This document shows, piece after piece, positions 9,236 to 16,272 of a DNA stretch of 64,000 nucleotides. A program made the translations under genes and the position numbers. Within the stretch, counting starts at the first letter, position 1; every line of letters starts with the position of its first letter. A model generated the notes under the pieces. The model saw only the letters and a list, made by a program, of their open reading frames with translations. It was not told the origin of the DNA and searched no databases. Origin of the DNA: Escherichia phage VTCCBPA_322; sequence record PP989839.1; one strand, written 5' to 3'.

Positions 9236-11533
9236 ATGAACGAAATGTTCTCGCAAGGTGGCAAAGGCTCCACTGGTATTCTTACCAATAAGCAAGCTAT
9301 TGCCCGTCATTTTGGTATTAAGCAATCCGAGGTTCTTTACTTCTCTGTTGGTGCTGTATTAGATGGTTATAAAGTCATTTATGACAAGTCCACTCAAAGG
9401 AGTTATTCCTTACCTGCTGGTATTCCATCTGGCACTACTGCTATTAGTCTAAGCACTGCTGCTGTACTTGTACACTCAGCAGGCAGTGAGGACTTAGGTA
9501 CTTTGGCTGCTACTCGTAAGGAATTTATAACTAAGCAGGAGAACTTTAATACAGGCTTTACTATTAGTACCCATAATGAGCAAGTAGTTACTCCTGGTGG
9601 GGTTTACTACTGGGCAGGGTCTTTACCTAAAGTTGTACCTCCTGGTTCCTCTATTGAGGAAACTGGTGGGGTGAATGCTACTGCATGGGTTAATTCATAC
9701 TCCAATGCTGTCTTATGTATTAAGGATTTGCTGACACATCCACAGGGTGGCACAGTTAGTGTGGTTGGTTACATTTCTGGTACGGACTTTGGTGGTGGTG
9801 ATTTTTACTGGGATGCTACTCGTCCACGTAGTAAACATAATGGTATTACAGTATTCAGTCCTACTGTTCCATTTAGTGGTTTATATACGGATATACCGAA
9901 TTTCCATGCTAAGGTTGGAGAGACTGCACCTGATGCCAATGGTTGTTGGGTGCGTAAGGACTGTGGTCGTAAAGTTCTAATGTCATGGGGTGGTGTAGAT
10001 ATTTCAGGCACTCAGCCAATGGATGCCGTAGTAACAAGTATGTGTACTTATGTGCATAATACTCGTCAGATTTTGGATGCTGATGAGAATGCTGTACTTA
10101 AGGCAGGGTTTACTACCGGTACTCAGACCAAAGATAAGCACAATGTGTTTACCCAAGCTTCTGTAATCTTAGAGGGTAAGTATGTCACCATTCGTGGTAA
10201 TGGGGCTAAGATTGATACATATCACCCTGTCCACAGAGAACGTTCTGTATTTGTTCTTCGTAATGGTGGGTATAACATTTCTGGTTTTAAATGGAATGAT
10301 GGGTACACTGACTTTAGTACTTCCCCTACGGATACCCAGCACAAACAAGGTGAATGGTGGATGGGTATTGTTGCAGATGGTGCAGTTACTTTAGTAGCTG
10401 ACCACCATGAAGTAACTGCTTCTCAGGTATTTGTACGAGCAGATGCATTTAATGCTACGGACTGGAATGAAAGAGTAACTGTACGGTATAGTAAGTTTGA
10501 CTACATTACTAACTACTGTTTCCTTAGTCGTAAGCTGAAACATTATGAGTTCAGCTACAATGAGGTTAAACACAATGGCCGTGAGTGGCATACTTATGGG
10601 GAAGCATGTGCTCCAACCACATACACCACACATACTATTATACGTAGTAATAACTTCTTCAATCAGATCGCAGAACAATCCTGTATTACTCCTGGGTCAT
10701 ACCATAAGTCCTGTCTGATTGTTAATAACCATTGTGAACGCTATCGAGGCATTTTCGTTGAGATTGGTTCTTCCAGTAATATCAGCATTCTGAATAACTA
10801 CTCTTATTCCAGTGGTGAAAGGGATAGTTCTCATATCCTACTTGTATCTGGTGGGGTAGATGACGAACCAGAGGGTGGTTTGAATAACTTGTTGATTAAC
10901 GGTAATGTGTTTGAGAGTGGACCGTATACGCTGCGGGAGTACAACACTGGTACTCCAGTTCGCAGAGGCATTACATTCTCTAATAACCACATTATTGATT
11001 GCCCTATGCCTAATATGGGTAATGCTGCTTACCACTCAATGGCATTTACCAATAACTACTGCCAGCCACCAGCAGACTTCCCGTATCTGGTATGGGCAGG
11101 TAAGAATCCAATTATTGAAGGCAATACTTTTGTTGGTGGGGTTATTCGTGCTAGAGATCTGGGTTATACCATTACTAACCCAATCATTCGTAATAACGTA
11201 TTCCGTGATGGTAGTACTGTTCAGACATTCCCTGCATTAATTGATATGACTGACTTTACCCGTTTAGTTGCTGAGGGTAACGATGTAACTAATGCTACCT
11301 TTACTCGTGTAATTGTTGATCCAGCCAACTGTACTTCGGTCGGGTTTAAACGTATTGGGCAGGCAGAGGGTTTTGAATCTAACCCAGCTACCTTGTATGG
11401 TGCTAAACTTACGGATGTAATTAATGGTGATATTGTGATGAACAATAACCCAGGTAATGCTGAAGGTGGTTACGCATGGGTATGCGTAAATTCTGGTTCT
11501 AAACAATTTGGTAAAATTGTCGTAGCTGTGTAA
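9236..11533 (+). CDS. tailspike-like protein with predicted right-handed beta-helix (possible polysaccharide depolymerase)
   Basis: 765 aa; recurring N-N/G-N-x-F/I rungs (IRSNNFFNQ, LINGNVFESG, ITFSNNHIID, IIEGNTFVGG, IRNNVFRDG, AEGNDVTNATF) typical of pectate-lyase-like beta-helices. Confidence 0.55.
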   Translation: MNEMFSQGGKGSTGILTNKQAIARHFGIKQSEVLYFSVGAVLDGYKVIYDKSTQRSYSLPAGIPSGTTAISLSTAAVLVHSAGSEDLGTLAATRKEFITKQENFNTGFTISTHNEQVVTPGGVYYWAGSLPKVVPPGSSIEETGGVNATAWVNSYSNAVLCIKDLLTHPQGGTVSVVGYISGTDFGGGDFYWDATRPRSKHNGITVFSPTVPFSGLYTDIPNFHAKVGETAPDANGCWVRKDCGRKVLMSWGGVDISGTQPMDAVVTSMCTYVHNTRQILDADENAVLKAGFTTGTQTKDKHNVFTQASVILEGKYVTIRGNGAKIDTYHPVHRERSVFVLRNGGYNISGFKWNDGYTDFSTSPTDTQHKQGEWWMGIVADGAVTLVADHHEVTASQVFVRADAFNATDWNERVTVRYSKFDYITNYCFLSRKLKHYEFSYNEVKHNGREWHTYGEACAPTTYTTHTIIRSNNFFNQIAEQSCITPGSYHKSCLIVNNHCERYRGIFVEIGSSSNISILNNYSYSSGERDSSHILLVSGGVDDEPEGGLNNLLINGNVFESGPYTLREYNTGTPVRRGITFSNNHIIDCPMPNMGNAAYHSMAFTNNYCQPPADFPYLVWAGKNPIIEGNTFVGGVIRARDLGYTITNPIIRNNVFRDGSTVQTFPALIDMTDFTRLVAEGNDVTNATFTRVIVDPANCTSVGFKRIGQAEGFESNPATLYGAKLTDVINGDIVMNNNPGNAEGGYAWVCVNSGSKQFGKIVVAV

Positions 11534-11535
11534 AC

Positions 11536-11561
11536 GAAAGCCCCCAATTAAGGGGGCTTTT
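11536..11561. terminator. bidirectional terminator hairpin AAGCCCCC-AATTAA-GGGGGCTT
   Basis: 8-bp stem between convergent genes ending at 11533 (+) and 11563 (-); T-rich flank on the + side. Confidence 0.55.
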
Positions 11562-11562
11562 C

Positions 11563-11943
11563 CTATATGGAGTTCACTGTTTGCATTACCCTGACTGACA
11601 CTGATGTTAGGGTAATTACTTGACCTGAGATATTGAACATACCCAGCTGGATACCATCTACCATAAACGGGTCTGTTGAACCGAGTGTGTAAGTAGCTAA
11701 TACATTATCTCTGTTAGCAATGTCCGTACCTTGTACCTTAACACTAGCGTCTGAACCCACTATCGTAGTTCCATTGGTTCGCCTTGTTTGTGTTCTCCAT
11801 TCCCTAGCTGTACCAGCACCTCCTGCAATAGTTCCTGAGATACGTACACTAAACATTACCTGGGTATTTCTGGTTCTAACAGGAAACTTAAGATTACCCT
11901 CTTCAATTGTTAGTGCTGCTGTACCTCCAGGAGTTTTAGTCAT
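11563..11943 (-). CDS. hypothetical protein encoded antisense to the late operon
   Basis: Track ORF 11563-12012 starts at TTG; first ATG at 11943 gives 126 aa (MTKTPGGTAALTIEEG...); rich in AGA/AGG/CGA/ATA/CTA codons unlike core genes. Confidence 0.4.
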   Translation of the reverse strand: MTKTPGGTAALTIEEGNLKFPVRTRNTQVMFSVRISGTIAGGAGTAREWRTQTRRTNGTTIVGSDASVKVQGTDIANRDNVLATYTLGSTDPFMVDGIQLGMFNISGQVITLTSVSVRVMQTVNSI

Positions 11944-12032
11944 GCCTGGTAAAGCAAAGTAATTGAACCAGGACTGGTCATTTACTGCCTGGTTCCCTGT
12001 CCACGTATACAAGTCCAGAAGGAAAGTATCTT

Positions 12033-12188
12033 CTAACTCGGTTGGGGGAAAGGTAGCAGTTCTGGTGGGATCTCTGAGATGTTATTAGCAGAAACTATTC
12101 GTTCCCCATAACTTCCCACGACCAACAATCCTCCCTTCATTTTGCATACAACATCCTTACCACTTTGGAAAATATCTTTAATAGACAT
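12033..12188 (-). CDS. small hypothetical protein
   Basis: ATG 12188 with GAGGT SD; MSIKDIFQSGKDVVCKMKGG...; upstream of the 126-aa gene on the same strand. Confidence 0.25.
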   Translation of the reverse strand: MSIKDIFQSGKDVVCKMKGGLLVVGSYGERIVSANNISEIPPELLPFPQPS

Positions 12189-12312
12189 AGTTACCTCGCA
12201 GTCGATACCAGACACTATGTCTGGATGTATTCCATCATACTAAGTATTATCTAAGAGTCATCTTATGATACGACCCTATTGGGGTTCCTAACTTTACAAC
12301 TACGGTAATATT

Positions 12313-12642
12313 ATGAATGAATCGGGTGAACTGCTTCTAGTCAGACTGGAGGAACGATTGAAGACTCTGTTTGAGAACCAGACAAGGGACAGGCAGGACC
12401 GTGAGAAACTGGAGGAAACTCTGGGAGAACTACGGGATTCAATCAATGACATAGGCAATAGACTAAAGAATGTGGAGGATAGCTTAGCTAAGAATGAACC
12501 TACTATTGAAGAGTTCATCACCATTAAGCATAAGGTCGTTGGTGCCGGAATTTTTGGTAAGTGGGTATGGGCTGGGGCAGGTGCAATTATCGGGGTACTG
12601 GCTGCTGCAAGACGGGAGATATTCGCATGGTTCGCAGGCTAA
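12313..12642 (+). CDS. lysis-cassette membrane protein (coiled-coil N-terminus, C-terminal TM helix; holin or antiholin candidate)
   Basis: 109 aa; charged heptad-like N-terminal region then VVGAGIFGKWVWAGAGAIIGVLAAA; first gene of the lysis cluster. Confidence 0.4.
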   Translation: MNESGELLLVRLEERLKTLFENQTRDRQDREKLEETLGELRDSINDIGNRLKNVEDSLAKNEPTIEEFITIKHKVVGAGIFGKWVWAGAGAIIGVLAAARREIFAWFAG

Positions 12643-12887
12643 AAAGAAAAGTAGAGTTAGTACCTAACTGGAAAAGATGCTGGAAGTGGGCATCAGTTCA
12701 AATTAGTACGTTTGGTTTAATTCTATTCTCTGCTGTAGATATCATCCAACCAATGATGACAGGATTACCTCGCCACATCCTGGATGATATTCCTCATGGT
12801 TCCAATATTGCAATCGCACTGTTTGCCTTAAACATCATAGGTAGATTAATACGATTCCGTCCAAAGGAAAATTCTCATGAAAGCTAA
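12627..12887 (+). CDS. putative holin (two TM helices)
   Basis: ATG 12627 (MVRRLKRKVEL...) after GGGAG SD; two hydrophobic helices (ISTFGLILFSAVDII, NIAIALFALNIIGRLI); rare codons; overlaps endolysin start (ATGA). Confidence 0.5.
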   Translation: MVRRLKRKVELVPNWKRCWKWASVQISTFGLILFSAVDIIQPMMTGLPRHILDDIPHGSNIAIALFALNIIGRLIRFRPKENSHES

Positions 12888-13512
12888 ACAGAAACTTGCT
12901 GCGAAAGGTGGTGCAGTGGGAGGAGTTGTCGCTGCTATTCTGGGGGCAGTGTTCTATATGGAAGGGGGTTATGTAAACAATCCTCGTGACCCAGGTGGGG
13001 AAACTAATCATGGTATTACCCAATCAGTAGCTAAGTCTCACAAAGAAGTTCTGGCTACTGAGTATGGTTGGGATGGTTCTATGAAGGGTTTATCTAAAGA
13101 GATGGCTGCTGAGATATACATTGATGACTACGTACTTAAGCCTAACTTCGTAGCCTTCGCTGATATATCTCCTGCTGTAACACATAAGCTGGTAGATGCT
13201 GGTGTTAATACTGGTGTGACTCGCCCGGCTAAGTGGTTACAGTTATCCCTTAATGAAATGTCCCGTGATGGCAAAGACTACCCTAAAATACAGGTTGATG
13301 GTAAAGTCGGTGTAAGTACTGTTAATGCATATAAAGCATTACAGAAAAAACGAGGCAAAGTTGCAGCATGTCAAGTAATGATTAAGCTGCTTGATGCTAA
13401 ACAACTGAACCACTATACCTCATTAAACATGCCAGACTTTACGTATGGTTGGGTAGCTAACCGAATTGGCAATGTGCCACTGGAGGCATGTAATGAAGAC
13501 GCTAATCTCTAA
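12877..13512 (+). CDS. endolysin, GH108-type N-acetylmuramidase with C-terminal peptidoglycan-binding region; possible SAR N-terminus
   Basis: MEGGYVNNPRDPGGETNHGIT matches the GH108 catalytic signature (EGGY...DPGG.T..GIT); preceded by Gly/Ala-rich weakly hydrophobic KGGAVGGVVAAILGAVFY. Confidence 0.75.
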   Translation: MKAKQKLAAKGGAVGGVVAAILGAVFYMEGGYVNNPRDPGGETNHGITQSVAKSHKEVLATEYGWDGSMKGLSKEMAAEIYIDDYVLKPNFVAFADISPAVTHKLVDAGVNTGVTRPAKWLQLSLNEMSRDGKDYPKIQVDGKVGVSTVNAYKALQKKRGKVAACQVMIKLLDAKQLNHYTSLNMPDFTYGWVANRIGNVPLEACNEDANL

Positions 13513-13999
13513 AGGTTGGCCTTATCTTCTGGTGGTGGTCCTTGGGGCCACCATTTACTTTTGGGGCAATTCCAATGGACAGTCTACTGTTCAAAAGAAA
13601 TGGGATGCCCAAAAGGTTGAAGACCAAAAGGCAACACAAAAATTACAGGACAAATACAATGCTCTCCAAAGAAACCATAGTTATGAAGTCGGGTTACTCA
13701 CTTCCCGGTTGCAGACGGCTGAGAGTAATTACGCAAGCGAGCTTGCTCGCGTTAGCAGTGATTACGACAGCCGGATGCAACAGTCTGAAAGGCGAGCATC
13801 GGTATATAAACGTCAAGCCGAAGCCGGAACCCTTGAGTGCAGAAGTCTTGCAAGCCATGCAGCCAGACTCGACAATAGTCTTGAAGAAGGCAGACGTTTG
13901 GTTGAAGAACTCCGGGCAACTGTTAGACTCCGTGACAACCAACTAATTGAGTTGGGTAAACAAATTCAGGCTGACCGTAAACTTTTTGAACAGGAATAA
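13493..13999 (+). CDS. i-spanin (Rz-like)
   Basis: ATG 13493 overlaps endolysin stop; N-terminal TM ([16 protein letters not shown]) then long charged helical region ([26 protein letters not shown]...). Confidence 0.6.
13683..13946 (+). CDS. o-spanin (Rz1-like lipoprotein) embedded in Rz in a different frame
   Basis: ATG 13683; signal-like [32 protein letters not shown] with lipobox-like TAGC; Pro-rich mature part (KPKPEP); wholly inside the Rz ORF. Confidence 0.5.
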   Translation: MKSGYSLPGCRRLRVITQASLLALAVITTAGCNSLKGEHRYINVKPKPEPLSAEVLQAMQPDSTIVLKKADVWLKNSGQLLDSVTTN

Positions 14000-14001
14000 C
14001 T

Positions 14002-16272
14002 ATGGAACACCAAGACACTTTTAAGCCTTTACCAGACCCGGCTCAATCAGAGAAGTTAACGGACTGGAAGAAGGAACCAAGTATCCAATTACTGAAAGGT
14101 GATCTGGAATCTGCTAAACCTGCTCACGATGCAATCATGGCACAAATTCGTGAGTGGAATGACTTAATGGAAGTCAAGGGTAAGGCTAAACCCCCAAAGG
14201 TAAAAGGGCGTTCACAGGTCCAACCTAGACTGGTTCGCCGTCAGGCAGAGTGGCGTTATGCTCCATTGTCTGAACCATTCCTTTCTTCTAATAAACTCTT
14301 TAAAGTAACCCCAGTTACTTTTGAAGATGAGTTAGCTGCTCGTCAGAATGAACTAGTTCTTAACTACCAATTCCGTACTCAGCTTAATAAAGTAAAATTG
14401 GTAGATGATTATGTGCATAGTGTCGTAGATGACGGTACTGGTATTGCTCGTATCGGTTGGGAACGTAAGACTGTTAAGATTAAGACAGAAACCCCAGTCT
14501 TCCAGTTGTATCCAATTGAGAACCAGGAACAAGCAGATGTTCTTCAACAGGCTTTGCAGCTTCAGGCAGAGAATCCCCGTGAGTATGACGAAACAATGCC
14601 GGAAGATATCAAGGAAGCTGTTAACTACTTCAACGAAACTGGAGAAGCTACTTATGCAATCCAGACTGGAGTTACTGAAGTAGAGGTAGAGAAAGCACTG
14701 GTTAACAGACCTACTGTTGAAATGCTTAATCCAAATAACGTAGTTATCGACCCAAGCTGTAATGGTGACTTAGATAAGGCTCTTTATGCAGTTATCTCCT
14801 TTGAGACTTGCAAAGCAGACCTTATGAAAAACAAAGACCGTTATCACAACCTGGATAAAATTGACTGGGAAAGTTCCAGCCCCATTACTGACCCAGACCA
14901 TGAAAGTAAAACCCCTAGCGATTTCCAGTTTAAGGATGCACTTCGTAAGAAGGTAGTTGCTTATGAGTACTGGGGATTCTACGACATCAATGATGATGGT
15001 TCATTGGAACCAATTGTTGCTACATGGATTGGCTCTACTCTTATTCGTATGGAGAAGAACCCATTCCCTGATGGCAAGTTACCATTGGTAGTTGTTCCTT
15101 ACATGCCACGTAAACGTGAACTCTATGGTGAAGCTGATGCTGAATTGTTAGGCGACAACCAGGCAATTCTTGGTGCAACTATACGTGGGATGATTGACCT
15201 GTTGGGTCGAAGTGCAAATGGTCAACGTGGTTATCCTAAAGGGATGTTAGATACCCTGAACCGTCGTCGATATGATGATGGGCAAGACTATGAATATAAC
15301 CCAATGCAAGGTAATCCCAGTCAGTCCATTATGGAACATAAGTTCCCTGAGTTGCCTCAGTCTGCAATAGTAATGACTCAGATGCAAAACCAGGAAGCAG
15401 AAGCATTAACAGGTGTTAAGGCATTTTCTGGTGGTGTAACTGGTTCAGCTTACGGTGATGTTGCTGCCGGTATTCGTGGTGCACTCGATGCAGCATCCAA
15501 ACGTGAGATGGCAATCCTACGTCGATTAGCTAAAGGCATGGCAGACATTGGTACTAAGATTTGTGCAATGAATGCTGTGTTCTTATCTGAGAAAGAAGTA
15601 GTACGTATTACTAATGAACAGTACGTGGAAATTAACCGTGAAGACCTTAAAGGTAACTTCGACATTGAGGTTGATATTAATACTGCTGAAATTGATAACC
15701 AGAAATCCCAGGACTTGAGCTTCATGGTTCAAACATTAGGTAATACAGTTGACCAGACTATTACGTTATCTCTTGTAGCAAAAATTGCAGAACTTAAACG
15801 TATGCCTGACCTTGCACATGAGTTACGTACCTGGCAACCACAACCAGACCCTATGGAAGAACAGCTTAAGCAATTGGCAATTCAGAAAGCACAGCTTGAG
15901 AATGAAGAGTTGCAAAGTAAAATTGCACTCAATATGGCTAAGGCTAAAGAGGCTGCTTCTAGCGGTGACCTTAAAGACCTGGATTATCTGGAGCAGGAAT
16001 CTGGTACTAAACATGCTCGTGATATGGAGAAACAAAAAGCACAATCCCAAGGAAACCAGAACCTTCAGATAACTAAGGCGTTGACAACACCTACTAAAGA
16101 AGGTGAAACTACCCCCAACATATCTGCTGCTGTTGGATATAACGCTTTGACTAACGGGAACTCTATACCAGAACGTGACTTAGCTGCACAACAAGACCCA
16201 GCTTATTCACTTAGTTCCCAATTTTATGACCCTAGCCAAGACCCAGCATCGGCTCTTGGCATGAACTTGTAA
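14002..16272 (+). CDS. portal protein
   Basis: 756 aa between lysis cassette and capsid genes; size and position match N4-type portal; GGAA SD before ATG 14002. No motif verified. Confidence 0.55.

Follow-up and report, generated by a model that had tools for sequence, protein, structure and literature searches.

How five overlapping genes share the work of host lysis, and which of the first two encodes the hole-forming protein, is the question raised by positions 12313–13999 on the + strand of the window, the 64,000-nt stretch of Escherichia phage VTCCBPA_322 (PP989839.1) analysed here. The original prediction described a lysis cassette with a two-TM holin, a possible antiholin upstream of it, an endolysin with a candidate signal-anchor-release (SAR) N-terminus, and a nested spanin pair. 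All five open reading frames lie where it had placed them (Table 1), and the cassette, the SAR-type endolysin, and the spanins stand, while the roles assigned to the first two genes lack support. Successive genes share 16, 11, and 20 nt; the fourth, the gp60-like gene, contains the whole of the fifth. The locus is collinear with the lysis cassette of phage N4 at 68.5% nucleotide identity, and we are confident that it serves host lysis in a coliphage of the genus Gamaleyavirus (G7C-like Schitoviridae), each of its genes having an orthologue in N4 (gp63-gp62-gp61-gp60/gp60a). The five genes of the N4 cassette follow the same order, overlap in the same way, and likewise include an embedded spanin (Awuah et al., 10.1101/2025.11.12.688109).

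Table 1. Genes and sequence features of the cassette; identities are at the amino acid level to the N4 homologue.
Feature	Position	Strand	Remarks
gp63-like protein, probable pinholin	12313..12642	+	109 aa; 68% identity
gp63 "Receiver" segment PTIEEFITIKHK	aa 63-74, nt 12499-12534	+	conserved
gp63 Gly/Ala-rich C-terminal TMD	aa ~75-99, nt 12535-12609	+	preceded by predicted cytoplasmic helical domain
gp63 possible internal TTG start	12358 (codon 16)	+	GGAGGA upstream
gp62-like two-TMD protein	12627..12887	+	86 aa; 61% identity
gp62 TMD1 and TMD2 (hydropathy)	~aa 21-41; ~aa 58-75		hydrophobic stretches aa 21-48, 55-78
gp61-like endolysin, probable SAR type	12877..13512	+	211 aa; 66% identity; GH108 catalytic domain and PG_binding_3
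gp61 putative SAR segment	~aa 8-28, nt ~12898-12960	+	directly before EGGY motif
gp60-like i-spanin	13493..13999	+	168 aa; 56% identity
gp60 N-terminal TMD (hydropathy)	~aa 9-25		followed by helical periplasmic domain; single periplasmic Cys115
gp60a-like o-spanin	13683..13946	+	+1 frame of gp60; 87 aa, or 95 aa from 13659; 62.5% identity
gp60a lipoprotein signal peptide and lipobox Cys	Cys codon 13776-13778		signal peptide 31 aa; lipobox TAGC; Asn at +2

Relatives and signals of the cassette

Gene structure, homology, domain content, and topology-type features were established at this locus. Topology was called for all products from hydropathy and motifs: one C-terminal TMD in the gp63-like protein, two TMDs in gp62, one weak Gly/Ala-rich N-terminal segment in gp61, and an N-terminal TMD in gp60. 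PHROG matches within the cassette fall in holin, endolysin, and Rz-like spanin families; the NCBIfam search gave only a sub-threshold match of gp61 to holin-associated N-acetylmuramidase and none for the other cassette proteins. DNA identity of the cassette is 96.7% to Escherichia phage UE-M6 and 95–96% to Bp4 and St11Ph5, in which these genes are likewise annotated; the range over the Gamaleyaviruses UE-M6, U1G, Bp4, St11Ph5, and G7C is 93–97%. Compared with these relatives, the gp62-like protein is the most variable (4–15 differences), gp61 differs from St11Ph5 by one residue and from UE-M6 by five, and gp63 is an exact match to the U1G and UE-M6 protein. Against G7C, the first half of gp63 is ~51% identical and the second half 87%, which places a mosaic boundary within the gene. 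Public databases already contain the protein sequences of gp63, gp61, and gp60, that of gp61 in exact form. The cassette is already known and offers nothing new, having been sequenced many times and its homologues dissected experimentally in N4; its discovery value is small, and its practical value lies in annotation.

Regulatory signals were scanned over 11400–14200. Five promoter-like sites were found against 5.0 expected from shuffling, which is not above chance, and none was on the + strand in the gap ahead of gp63. Terminator-like hairpins in this interval lie within coding sequence and are probably due to chance. The window contains no tRNA genes. Codons rare in E. coli make up 10 of the 86 codons of gp62 (11.6%) and 15 of the 109 of gp63 (13.8%), a 3–4-fold enrichment over the window mean of 3.8%. 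The predicted use of rare codons by the holin is correct as to the enrichment; since the content is similar in gp63 and a number of other small genes of the window, it is not a holin-specific signal, and rare codons as a holin-specific throttle were rejected.

Hole formation and its timing

The first gene had been described as encoding a coiled-coil membrane protein, in agreement with the hydrophobic stretch that hydropathy places at the C-terminus of the product. AF2 predicts a single helix over aa 4–108 (pLDDT 95.4), and the basic residues on either side of the TMD make its membrane orientation ambiguous. The protein belongs to phrog_5211 (E = 2.7e-50), a family of unknown function, and the gp63 family consists of 123 clusters of ~100–120 aa with the conserved pattern PTIxEF..K.KV.GAG..GKW.W (alignment A1). 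Its length, Receiver segment, C-terminal TMD, and first place in the cassette are those of the N4 gp63 family, whose members have ~110 aa. The segment PTIEEFITIKHKVVGAG is identical to N4, the TMD differs at 4 positions, and the N-terminal cytoplasmic part has diverged. T64 and T70 match N4 T65 and T71; these two residues, together with gp63 M17 and gp61 G12, are named in the N4 study and were verified in the N4 sequence. The protein does not fit the classical S21-type pinholin, which is of class II with two TMDs, as it has one C-terminal TMD and no holin Pfam match.

The second gene encodes a member of Pfam DUF7940 (53.8 bits, cut-off 27) that also matches phrog_1356 "holin" (E = 2.9e-30), and its ATG is preceded by a strong Shine-Dalgarno sequence (GGGAGA). 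The two TM stretches predicted for it were recovered. A lambda-S-like dual start for this gene, from an upstream GTG at 12561 or ATG at 12567, was rejected: these starts fall within the conserved GKWVW codons of gp63, and the extension therefore looks like a by-product of the overlap. The in-frame extension is open in most relatives and closed after 4 codons in Moo19 and 10 in RiverRider.

It had been proposed that this 86-aa protein is the lysis-timing holin and the 109-aa helical membrane protein its antiholin. Databases do name the two-TMD protein "holin" (phrog_1356, RefSeq annotations), its N-in/C-in layout with two TMDs is that of class II holins, the two genes co-occur in 60 of 65 N4-like genomes, and N4 gp62 kills when triggered with CCCP and can slowly release both lambda R and R21. 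The genetic data from N4, however, make this assignment unlikely. N4 gp63 is lethal by itself, complements the S21 pinholin defect and not that of S105, and is a site of rapid-lysis mutations (10.1101/2025.11.12.688109). Without gp63, lysis from the plasmid-borne N4 cassette came later, not earlier, which is the opposite of what loss of an antiholin would give, and the phage deletion was recovered only with compensating SAR-domain mutations (10.1101/2025.11.12.688109). Deletion of gp62, on the other hand, left plasmid-driven lysis unchanged and the phage viable; the protein had only late, triggerable holin-like activity and was termed a lysis regulator by the authors. The rapid-lysis mutations in the N4 cassette, from more than 60 isolates, all mapped to gp63 or gp61, and gp62 had none (10.1101/2025.11.12.688109). 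With gp62 a non-essential regulator and gp63 a pinholin in N4, the predicted holin and antiholin roles are probably reversed: by homology, the gp63-like protein is more likely the pinholin, and the gene labelled "holin" more likely encodes an accessory regulator. These labels are not absolute, because N4 gp62, too, can be triggered to form lethal holes and is able to release lambda R. Both of them come from one preprint (10.1101/2025.11.12.688109).

Bp4, U1G, UE-M6, KP8, and others carry for the first gene a product name such as "tail length tape-measure protein" or "tail needle protein", and the gene adjoins the tailspike module. A virion structural protein outside the lysis system is nevertheless extremely unlikely. 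The product has 109 aa, is predicted to be one helix, and carries its TMD at the C-terminus; it was searched against Pfam and PHROG tail families and matched none; and its gene shares 16 nt with the next lysis gene. In the last column of the KP8 table, which we take to be proteome coverage, other structural proteins have values and the gp63-like gene has none, and the N4 genetics point to pinholin activity. The tape-measure name was rejected and looks like an annotation of a coiled-coil protein that has been passed from record to record. Many records mislabel the 109-aa gene in this way, and the proper name would be gp63-type pinholin.

In the sub-lineage of G7C-like phages to which this one belongs, the gp63-like pinholin might be made in two forms. 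A 109-aa product would start at the ATG at 12313, which has a weak ribosome-binding site, and a 94-aa product at the TTG at 12358, which has a GGAGGA ahead of it. In N4 this position, Leu16 here, is Met17, the alternative start; many gene callers choose the TTG as the start. Two forms of gp63, along with the rare-codon enrichment of gp63 and gp62, could make up a dual-start timing pair resembling a holin and antiholin. A second consideration concerns lysis inhibition, which is shown by N4 and is reported to be absent in G7C, a Gamaleyavirus like the nearest relatives of the present phage; regulation may therefore differ between them. Since a genus in which lysis inhibition is reportedly lacking conserves the Receiver segment in full, this segment may take a general gating signal and not an N4-specific superinfection signal. 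The combined reading, with a dual-product gp63 setting lysis timing and, separately, the Receiver as a general gating input, seems rather doubtful to us. The cassette is a natural comparison for mapping determinants of lysis inhibition, because the genus is reportedly without it, yet the Receiver is identical to N4 and the TMD has 4 differences.

The endolysin and the proposed course of lysis

The third product was predicted to be a GH108 muramidase, and both Pfam domains score over their cut-offs: Glyco_hydro_108 (PF05838) 72.1 bits against 21.2, and PG_binding_3 (PF09374) 30.8 bits against 24.6. The protein aligns over aa 23–197 with PDB 6v3z (E = 1e-26) and also matches the GH108 structure 6v40, and these sequence matches to solved GH108 structures allow the fold to be regarded as settled. 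The TtsA-like muramidases 6v3z (Sen1395) and 6v40 are the same two-domain enzyme, GH108 plus PG_binding_3. The GH108 motif EGGY, beginning at E29, is aligned with that of N4 gp61 and Sen1395; E29 is presumably the catalytic residue.

Ahead of this motif the N-terminus reads K10-GGAVGGVVAAILGAVFYM-E29, with 9 Gly/Ala among 18 uncharged residues and a peak Kyte-Doolittle value of 2.0. A SAR domain should be a weakly hydrophobic, Gly/Ala-rich N-terminal TMD with a basic flank, contiguous with the enzyme; the N-terminus fits this description, and the SAR glycines of N4 gp61 are conserved. Hydropathy by itself cannot tell a signal peptide, an anchor, and a SAR domain apart, and the segment could in principle be a Sec signal peptide that is cleaved off, or a signal anchor that is never released. 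This is very unlikely, as the uncharged stretch has just 18 residues, half of them Gly/Ala, and it directly joins EGGY, which leaves no mature N-terminal linker; soluble GH108 structures align from ~aa 19–23. The C-terminal part of the hydrophobic segment aligns with the first residues of these structures, where polar residues replace it (DEILGK against GAVFYM in the present protein). Such an overlap is expected if a SAR domain refolds onto the enzyme and is no argument against one. Experiments have established N4 gp61 as a SAR endolysin: it is membrane-associated, works with the pinholin, and lyses slowly alone, and G12E in the SAR domain causes rapid lysis while charge insertions in the segment cause premature lysis (10.1101/2025.11.12.688109; for N4 gp61 see also Stojkovic and Rothman-Denes, 2007, as cited therein). 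The SAR-type N-terminus proposed earlier is present in the sequence, and its homologue in N4 acts as one. Sec-dependent tethering and release and activation by depolarisation, without a large hole, are known for N4 gp61 and would by analogy apply to the protein studied here.

The nearest functional parallel is S21/R21 of phage 21, in which the membrane is depolarised by a protein that makes small holes, and an endolysin tethered to that membrane is set free; the same principle would apply here. S21 and R21 have no sequence relationship to the present proteins. S21 has two TMDs, TMD1 being SAR-like, whereas the gp63-like protein has one C-terminal TMD after a ~75-aa cytoplasmic helix, and R21 is a T4-lysozyme-type enzyme whereas the endolysin here is a GH108 muramidase. 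N4 gp63 and gp61 complement S21 and R21 defects (10.1101/2025.11.12.688109).

For all five products we infer the biochemical roles from experiments on the N4 homologues, which are 56–68% identical, and the following course of lysis is proposed. Expression of the cassette would be late. The gp61-like muramidase would be exported by Sec and held inactive at the inner membrane by its SAR segment, while the gp63-like protein, a single long helix whose Gly/Ala-rich TMD is C-terminal, would accumulate in the same membrane. At a set time, this pinholin would form small lethal holes and collapse the proton-motive force; depolarisation would free the SAR segment, and gp61 would refold and degrade peptidoglycan all round the cell. 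The inner-membrane spanin gp60 and the outer-membrane lipoprotein gp60a would then, as a periplasm-spanning complex, disrupt the outer membrane. The two-TMD gp62-like protein would be accessory, modulating timing and able itself to form late holes.

The nested spanin genes

The Rz-like i-spanin anticipated for the fourth gene is borne out by a match to phrog_6197 "Rz-like spanin" (E = 1.6e-77), an N-terminal TMD, and the N4 homologue. Searched against the lambda Rz and Rz1 Pfam families, the pair gave no match, with only a sub-threshold hit to DUF2514 (16 bits against 26). As in lambda, a type II inner-membrane protein is paired with a Pro-containing outer-membrane lipoprotein embedded in the +1 frame; the present pair differs in its lack of a Pfam lambda-Rz/Rz1 match and in having no periplasmic Cys in the mature o-spanin. 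The N4 pair is functionally interchangeable with that of lambda, as N4 gp60/gp60a complement the lambda RzRz1 defect (10.1101/2025.11.12.688109). The only periplasmic Cys of the i-spanin is C115, and the mature o-spanin has none besides the lipidated Cys; at least one periplasmic Cys is found in 507 of 528 known spanin pairs (PMC6139136).

The embedded Rz1-like lipoprotein was also recovered with the TAGC and KPKPEP motifs ascribed to it, its best start being 13683 or 13659. Its signal region consists of a basic n-region and a 15-aa h-region followed by the lipobox (IVGC in N4), and the +2 residue is Asn, not Asp. The Thr at −3 lies outside the strict [LVI] consensus, but deviations at this position are documented in o-spanins (PMC6139136). 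The mature lipoprotein, which contains KPKPEP, has 56 aa, as in N4. A second lipobox-like motif upstream, LPGC, was rejected: only 9 residues separate it from the Met, it lacks a hydrophobic core, and neither N4 nor KP8 conserves it.

The embedded frame is real, far beyond chance, and both overlapping frames are under purifying selection. A lipobox-bearing ORF occurs in the same relative frame in 12 of the 12 N4-like loci examined. At conserved gp60 residues, codons are identical in 223 of 282 cases in the mature o-spanin region and in 61 of 142 in the non-overlapped part (Fisher p = 1.9e-13), an excess that reflects suppression of synonymous sites across the embedded frame. St11Ph5 and G7C have annotations for all five genes, the o-spanin being called gp60.1 in the former and gp60' in the latter; most records, e.g., UE-M6 and N4 RefSeq, omit it. 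In the most distant matching records, e.g., Stenotrophomonas phages, DNA-level matching to the query is confined to the dual-coding stretch.

Gene order and relatives of the cassette

The original prediction of a lysis cassette with five genes at 12313-13999 holds, all five being confirmed on the plus strand by the ORF listing and the raw sequence; the genes are named here after their phage N4 counterparts. Consecutive genes overlap by 16, 11, and 20 nt, Shine-Dalgarno-like sequences were found (GGGAGA before ATG 12627, AAGGAA before 12877, and GGAGG before 13493), and the portal gene starts at 14002, 2 nt past the cassette end. Megablast against phage genomes gave 96.7% identity to Escherichia phage UE-M6 across the whole cassette and 95-96% to Bp4, St11Ph5, U1G, and others, all of them Gamaleyavirus (G7C-like Schitoviridae), and a more sensitive search found N4 to be collinear at 68.5% identity. 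Protein identities to N4 are 68% (gp63), 61% (gp62), 66% (gp61), 56% (gp60), and 62.5% (gp60a). The lysis reading is supported by homology to the dissected N4 cassette, and functional roles were drawn from the N4 experiments (Awuah et al., 2025-26 preprint, bioRxiv 10.1101/2025.11.12.688109); the residues named in that study were checked and confirmed in the N4 sequence. The five genes are annotated in St11Ph5 and G7C too: gp63, the putative holin gp62, the N-acetylmuramidase gp61, and gp60 with a spanin embedded in it (gp60.1 and gp60', respectively). The gp63-like protein has the same sequence in U1G and UE-M6, and public collections already contain exact copies of the endolysin and the i-spanin. 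This is an ordinary N4-type lysis cassette, already sequenced and already known, with homologues now experimentally explained; its remaining value lies in fixing widespread misannotation and in comparison with N4, its own genus being reported without lysis inhibition. Public records commonly mislabel the gp63 homologue as "tail length tape-measure protein (T)" or "tail needle protein" (Bp4, U1G, UE-M6, KP8, and others), and the embedded o-spanin is absent from many of them, including N4 RefSeq and UE-M6.

Features of the lysis cassette and its upstream flank
Feature	Coordinates	Strand	Product or remark
Tailspike gene	9236-11533		765 aa; Tail_spike_N domain and beta-helix
PHROG 17779 gene (unknown function)	11563-12215	-	60-aa and 149-aa ORFs
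Sigma70-like site	12261-12234	-	same intergenic region as AAGTATTATC
Motif AAGTATTATC	12242-12251		candidate late-promoter -10 element
gp63-like gene	12313-12642	+	109 aa
gp62 in-frame extension	12561-12626		GTG 12561, ATG 12567; 106-108-aa form
gp62-like gene	12627-12887	+	86 aa
gp61-like gene	12877-13512	+	211 aa, endolysin
gp60-like gene	13493-13999	+	168 aa, i-spanin
gp60a-like ORF	13683-13946 (best) or 13659-13946	+	87 or 95 aa; +1 frame within gp60

The two membrane proteins

The only match of gp63 is PHROG 5211 (unknown function), beside sub-threshold coiled-coil families (Pfam and PHROG), and its hydropathy shows a C-terminal Gly/Ala-rich stretch at about residues 75-99. AlphaFold2, run on a 48-sequence alignment, predicted one unbroken helix over residues 4-108 (pLDDT 95.4, pTM 0.54), which fits the expected coiled-coil membrane protein; that it forms an oligomeric coiled coil is inferred. 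HMMER, run exhaustively against 1.84 billion representatives, gave 123 clusters at E <= 1e-3, nearly all of about 100-120 aa, and aligning with an N-terminal ES.EV.LAR..ER, a variable middle, PTI.EF..K.KV.GAG..GKW.W, and a hydrophobic tail. The conservation reaches upstream of codon 16 and therefore supports ATG 12313 as the genuine start. Many public gene calls choose TTG 12358 (codon 16), which follows GGAGGA, matches the position of the N4 alternative start Met17, and gives a 94-aa product; this codon is not conserved, since G7C and KP8 have CTG there and Moo19 has TTT.

Databases label gp62 a holin (PHROG 1356 "holin"); it also matches DUF7940 (53.8 bits, cut-off 27) and has two hydrophobic stretches. 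It had been taken as the holin, with gp63 as a possible antiholin. The N4 experiments do not bear this out. N4 gp63 complements the S21 pinholin, not lambda S105, and is lethal alone; its deletion from the plasmid cassette makes lysis about 20 min later; the cassette-borne rapid-lysis mutations outside gp61 all fall in its Receiver, the conserved segment just before the C-terminal transmembrane domain (TMD) (e.g., T65I, T71A); and gp62 was designated lysis regulator (Awuah et al.). The gp63 segment PTIEEFITIKHKVVGAG is the same in window and N4, and the TMD differs at four positions. By analogy with N4, gp63 is most likely the lysis-triggering pinholin and gp62 an accessory protein, the reverse of the predicted roles. 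The extended gp62 has been annotated in KP8 and also described for N4, and it overlaps gp63 TMD codons; since Moo19 and RiverRider have the extension closed, the longer form probably arises as a by-product of that overlap.

Rare codons had also been noted in the presumed holin. With a set of eight for E. coli (AGA, AGG, CGA, CGG, ATA, CTA, CCC, and GGA), the share is 11.6% in gp62 (binomial p = 1.6e-3) and 13.8% in gp63 (p = 1.7e-5), 3.3% in the endolysin, 2.9% in the portal, 2.4% in the tailspike, and 3.8% in the whole window. The enrichment is real, but it does not distinguish gp62, as gp63 and several other small window genes are similar. No tRNA genes are encoded in the window.

Endolysin and spanins

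The endolysin scores above the Pfam thresholds for Glyco_hydro_108 and PG_binding_3 and matches solved GH108 structures (6v3z, E = 1e-26; 6v40, E = 7e-20) in alignments that begin at residues 19-23. Its N-terminus has one weak Gly/Ala-rich hydrophobic segment, K10-GGAVGGVVAAILGAVFYM-E29, with 18 uncharged residues (nine Gly/Ala) and the EGGY motif directly after. N4 gp61 is a signal-anchor-release (SAR) endolysin that complements lambda R and R21 defects and alone gives slow lysis, and G12E in its SAR domain leads to rapid lysis (Awuah et al.). Together these data support the predicted GH108 endolysin with a SAR-type N-terminus. Part of the segment lines up with the beginning of soluble GH108 domains; this is expected if the SAR domain refolds onto the enzyme once released, as in R21 (cited in Awuah et al.), and does not argue against SAR function.

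The i-spanin gp60 matches PHROG 6197 "Rz-like spanin" (E = 1.6e-77) and has an N-terminal TMD. From Met 13683, gp60a shows a basic n-region of 14 residues, a 15-residue hydrophobic core, and the lipobox TAGC, and the mature lipoprotein of 56 residues begins with CN and contains KPKPEP. Asn at +2, not Asp, is compatible with outer-membrane sorting (Lol rule). The mature length equals that of N4 gp60a (Awuah et al.). Thr at -3 is off the consensus [LVI][ASTVI][GAS]C; such deviations are documented for o-spanins (PMC6139136), and relatives carry canonical boxes, IVGC, LLGC, LTGC, and LAGC among them. By comparative sequence evidence, the predicted embedded Rz1-like gene is real, well beyond chance, because a lipobox ORF lies in the same relative frame in 12/12 N4-like loci examined (hosts including Escherichia, Klebsiella, Shigella, Achromobacter, Pseudomonas, Erwinia, Stenotrophomonas, and Xanthomonas), identical codons at conserved gp60 residues are in excess over the mature o-spanin region (223/282 vs 61/142 in the non-overlapped part, Fisher p = 1.9e-13), and in the most distant matching records (e.g., Stenotrophomonas phages) the DNA-level match is limited to the dual-coding stretch. 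The excess has the same direction in 7/7 comparisons, which are not phylogenetically independent. The 12 loci keep the motif INVKPK.EPLS...LQAMQPDST...LLDSVT. The pair has a single periplasmic Cys (i-spanin C115), consistent with the at least one found in nearly all two-component spanins (PMC6139136), and N4 gp60/gp60a complement lambda RzRz1 (Awuah et al.).

The upstream flank

A mosaic boundary lies within the first half of gp63 (12313-12470). G7C-type phages show 93% nucleotide identity only from about 12460-12472 on, and against G7C the first 55 alignment columns of gp63 are 51% identical and the remainder 87%. This break borders on the exchangeable tailspike module, which lies upstream; the tailspike 3' end is unmatched in the closest relatives by megablast, so this phage has a different receptor-binding module. 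The PHROG 17779 gene, an intact 208-aa ORF in UE-M6, is split by a 1-nt deletion near 12046 within a C-run (CCCCC vs CCCACC in UE-M6), which points either to a true pseudogene or to a sequencing error in a homopolymer. The motif AAGTATTATC, about 65 nt upstream of gp63 in the divergent intergenic region, is common to St11Ph5, UE-M6, Moo19, and KP8 (GTATTAT) and similar to N4 GGTACTAT.
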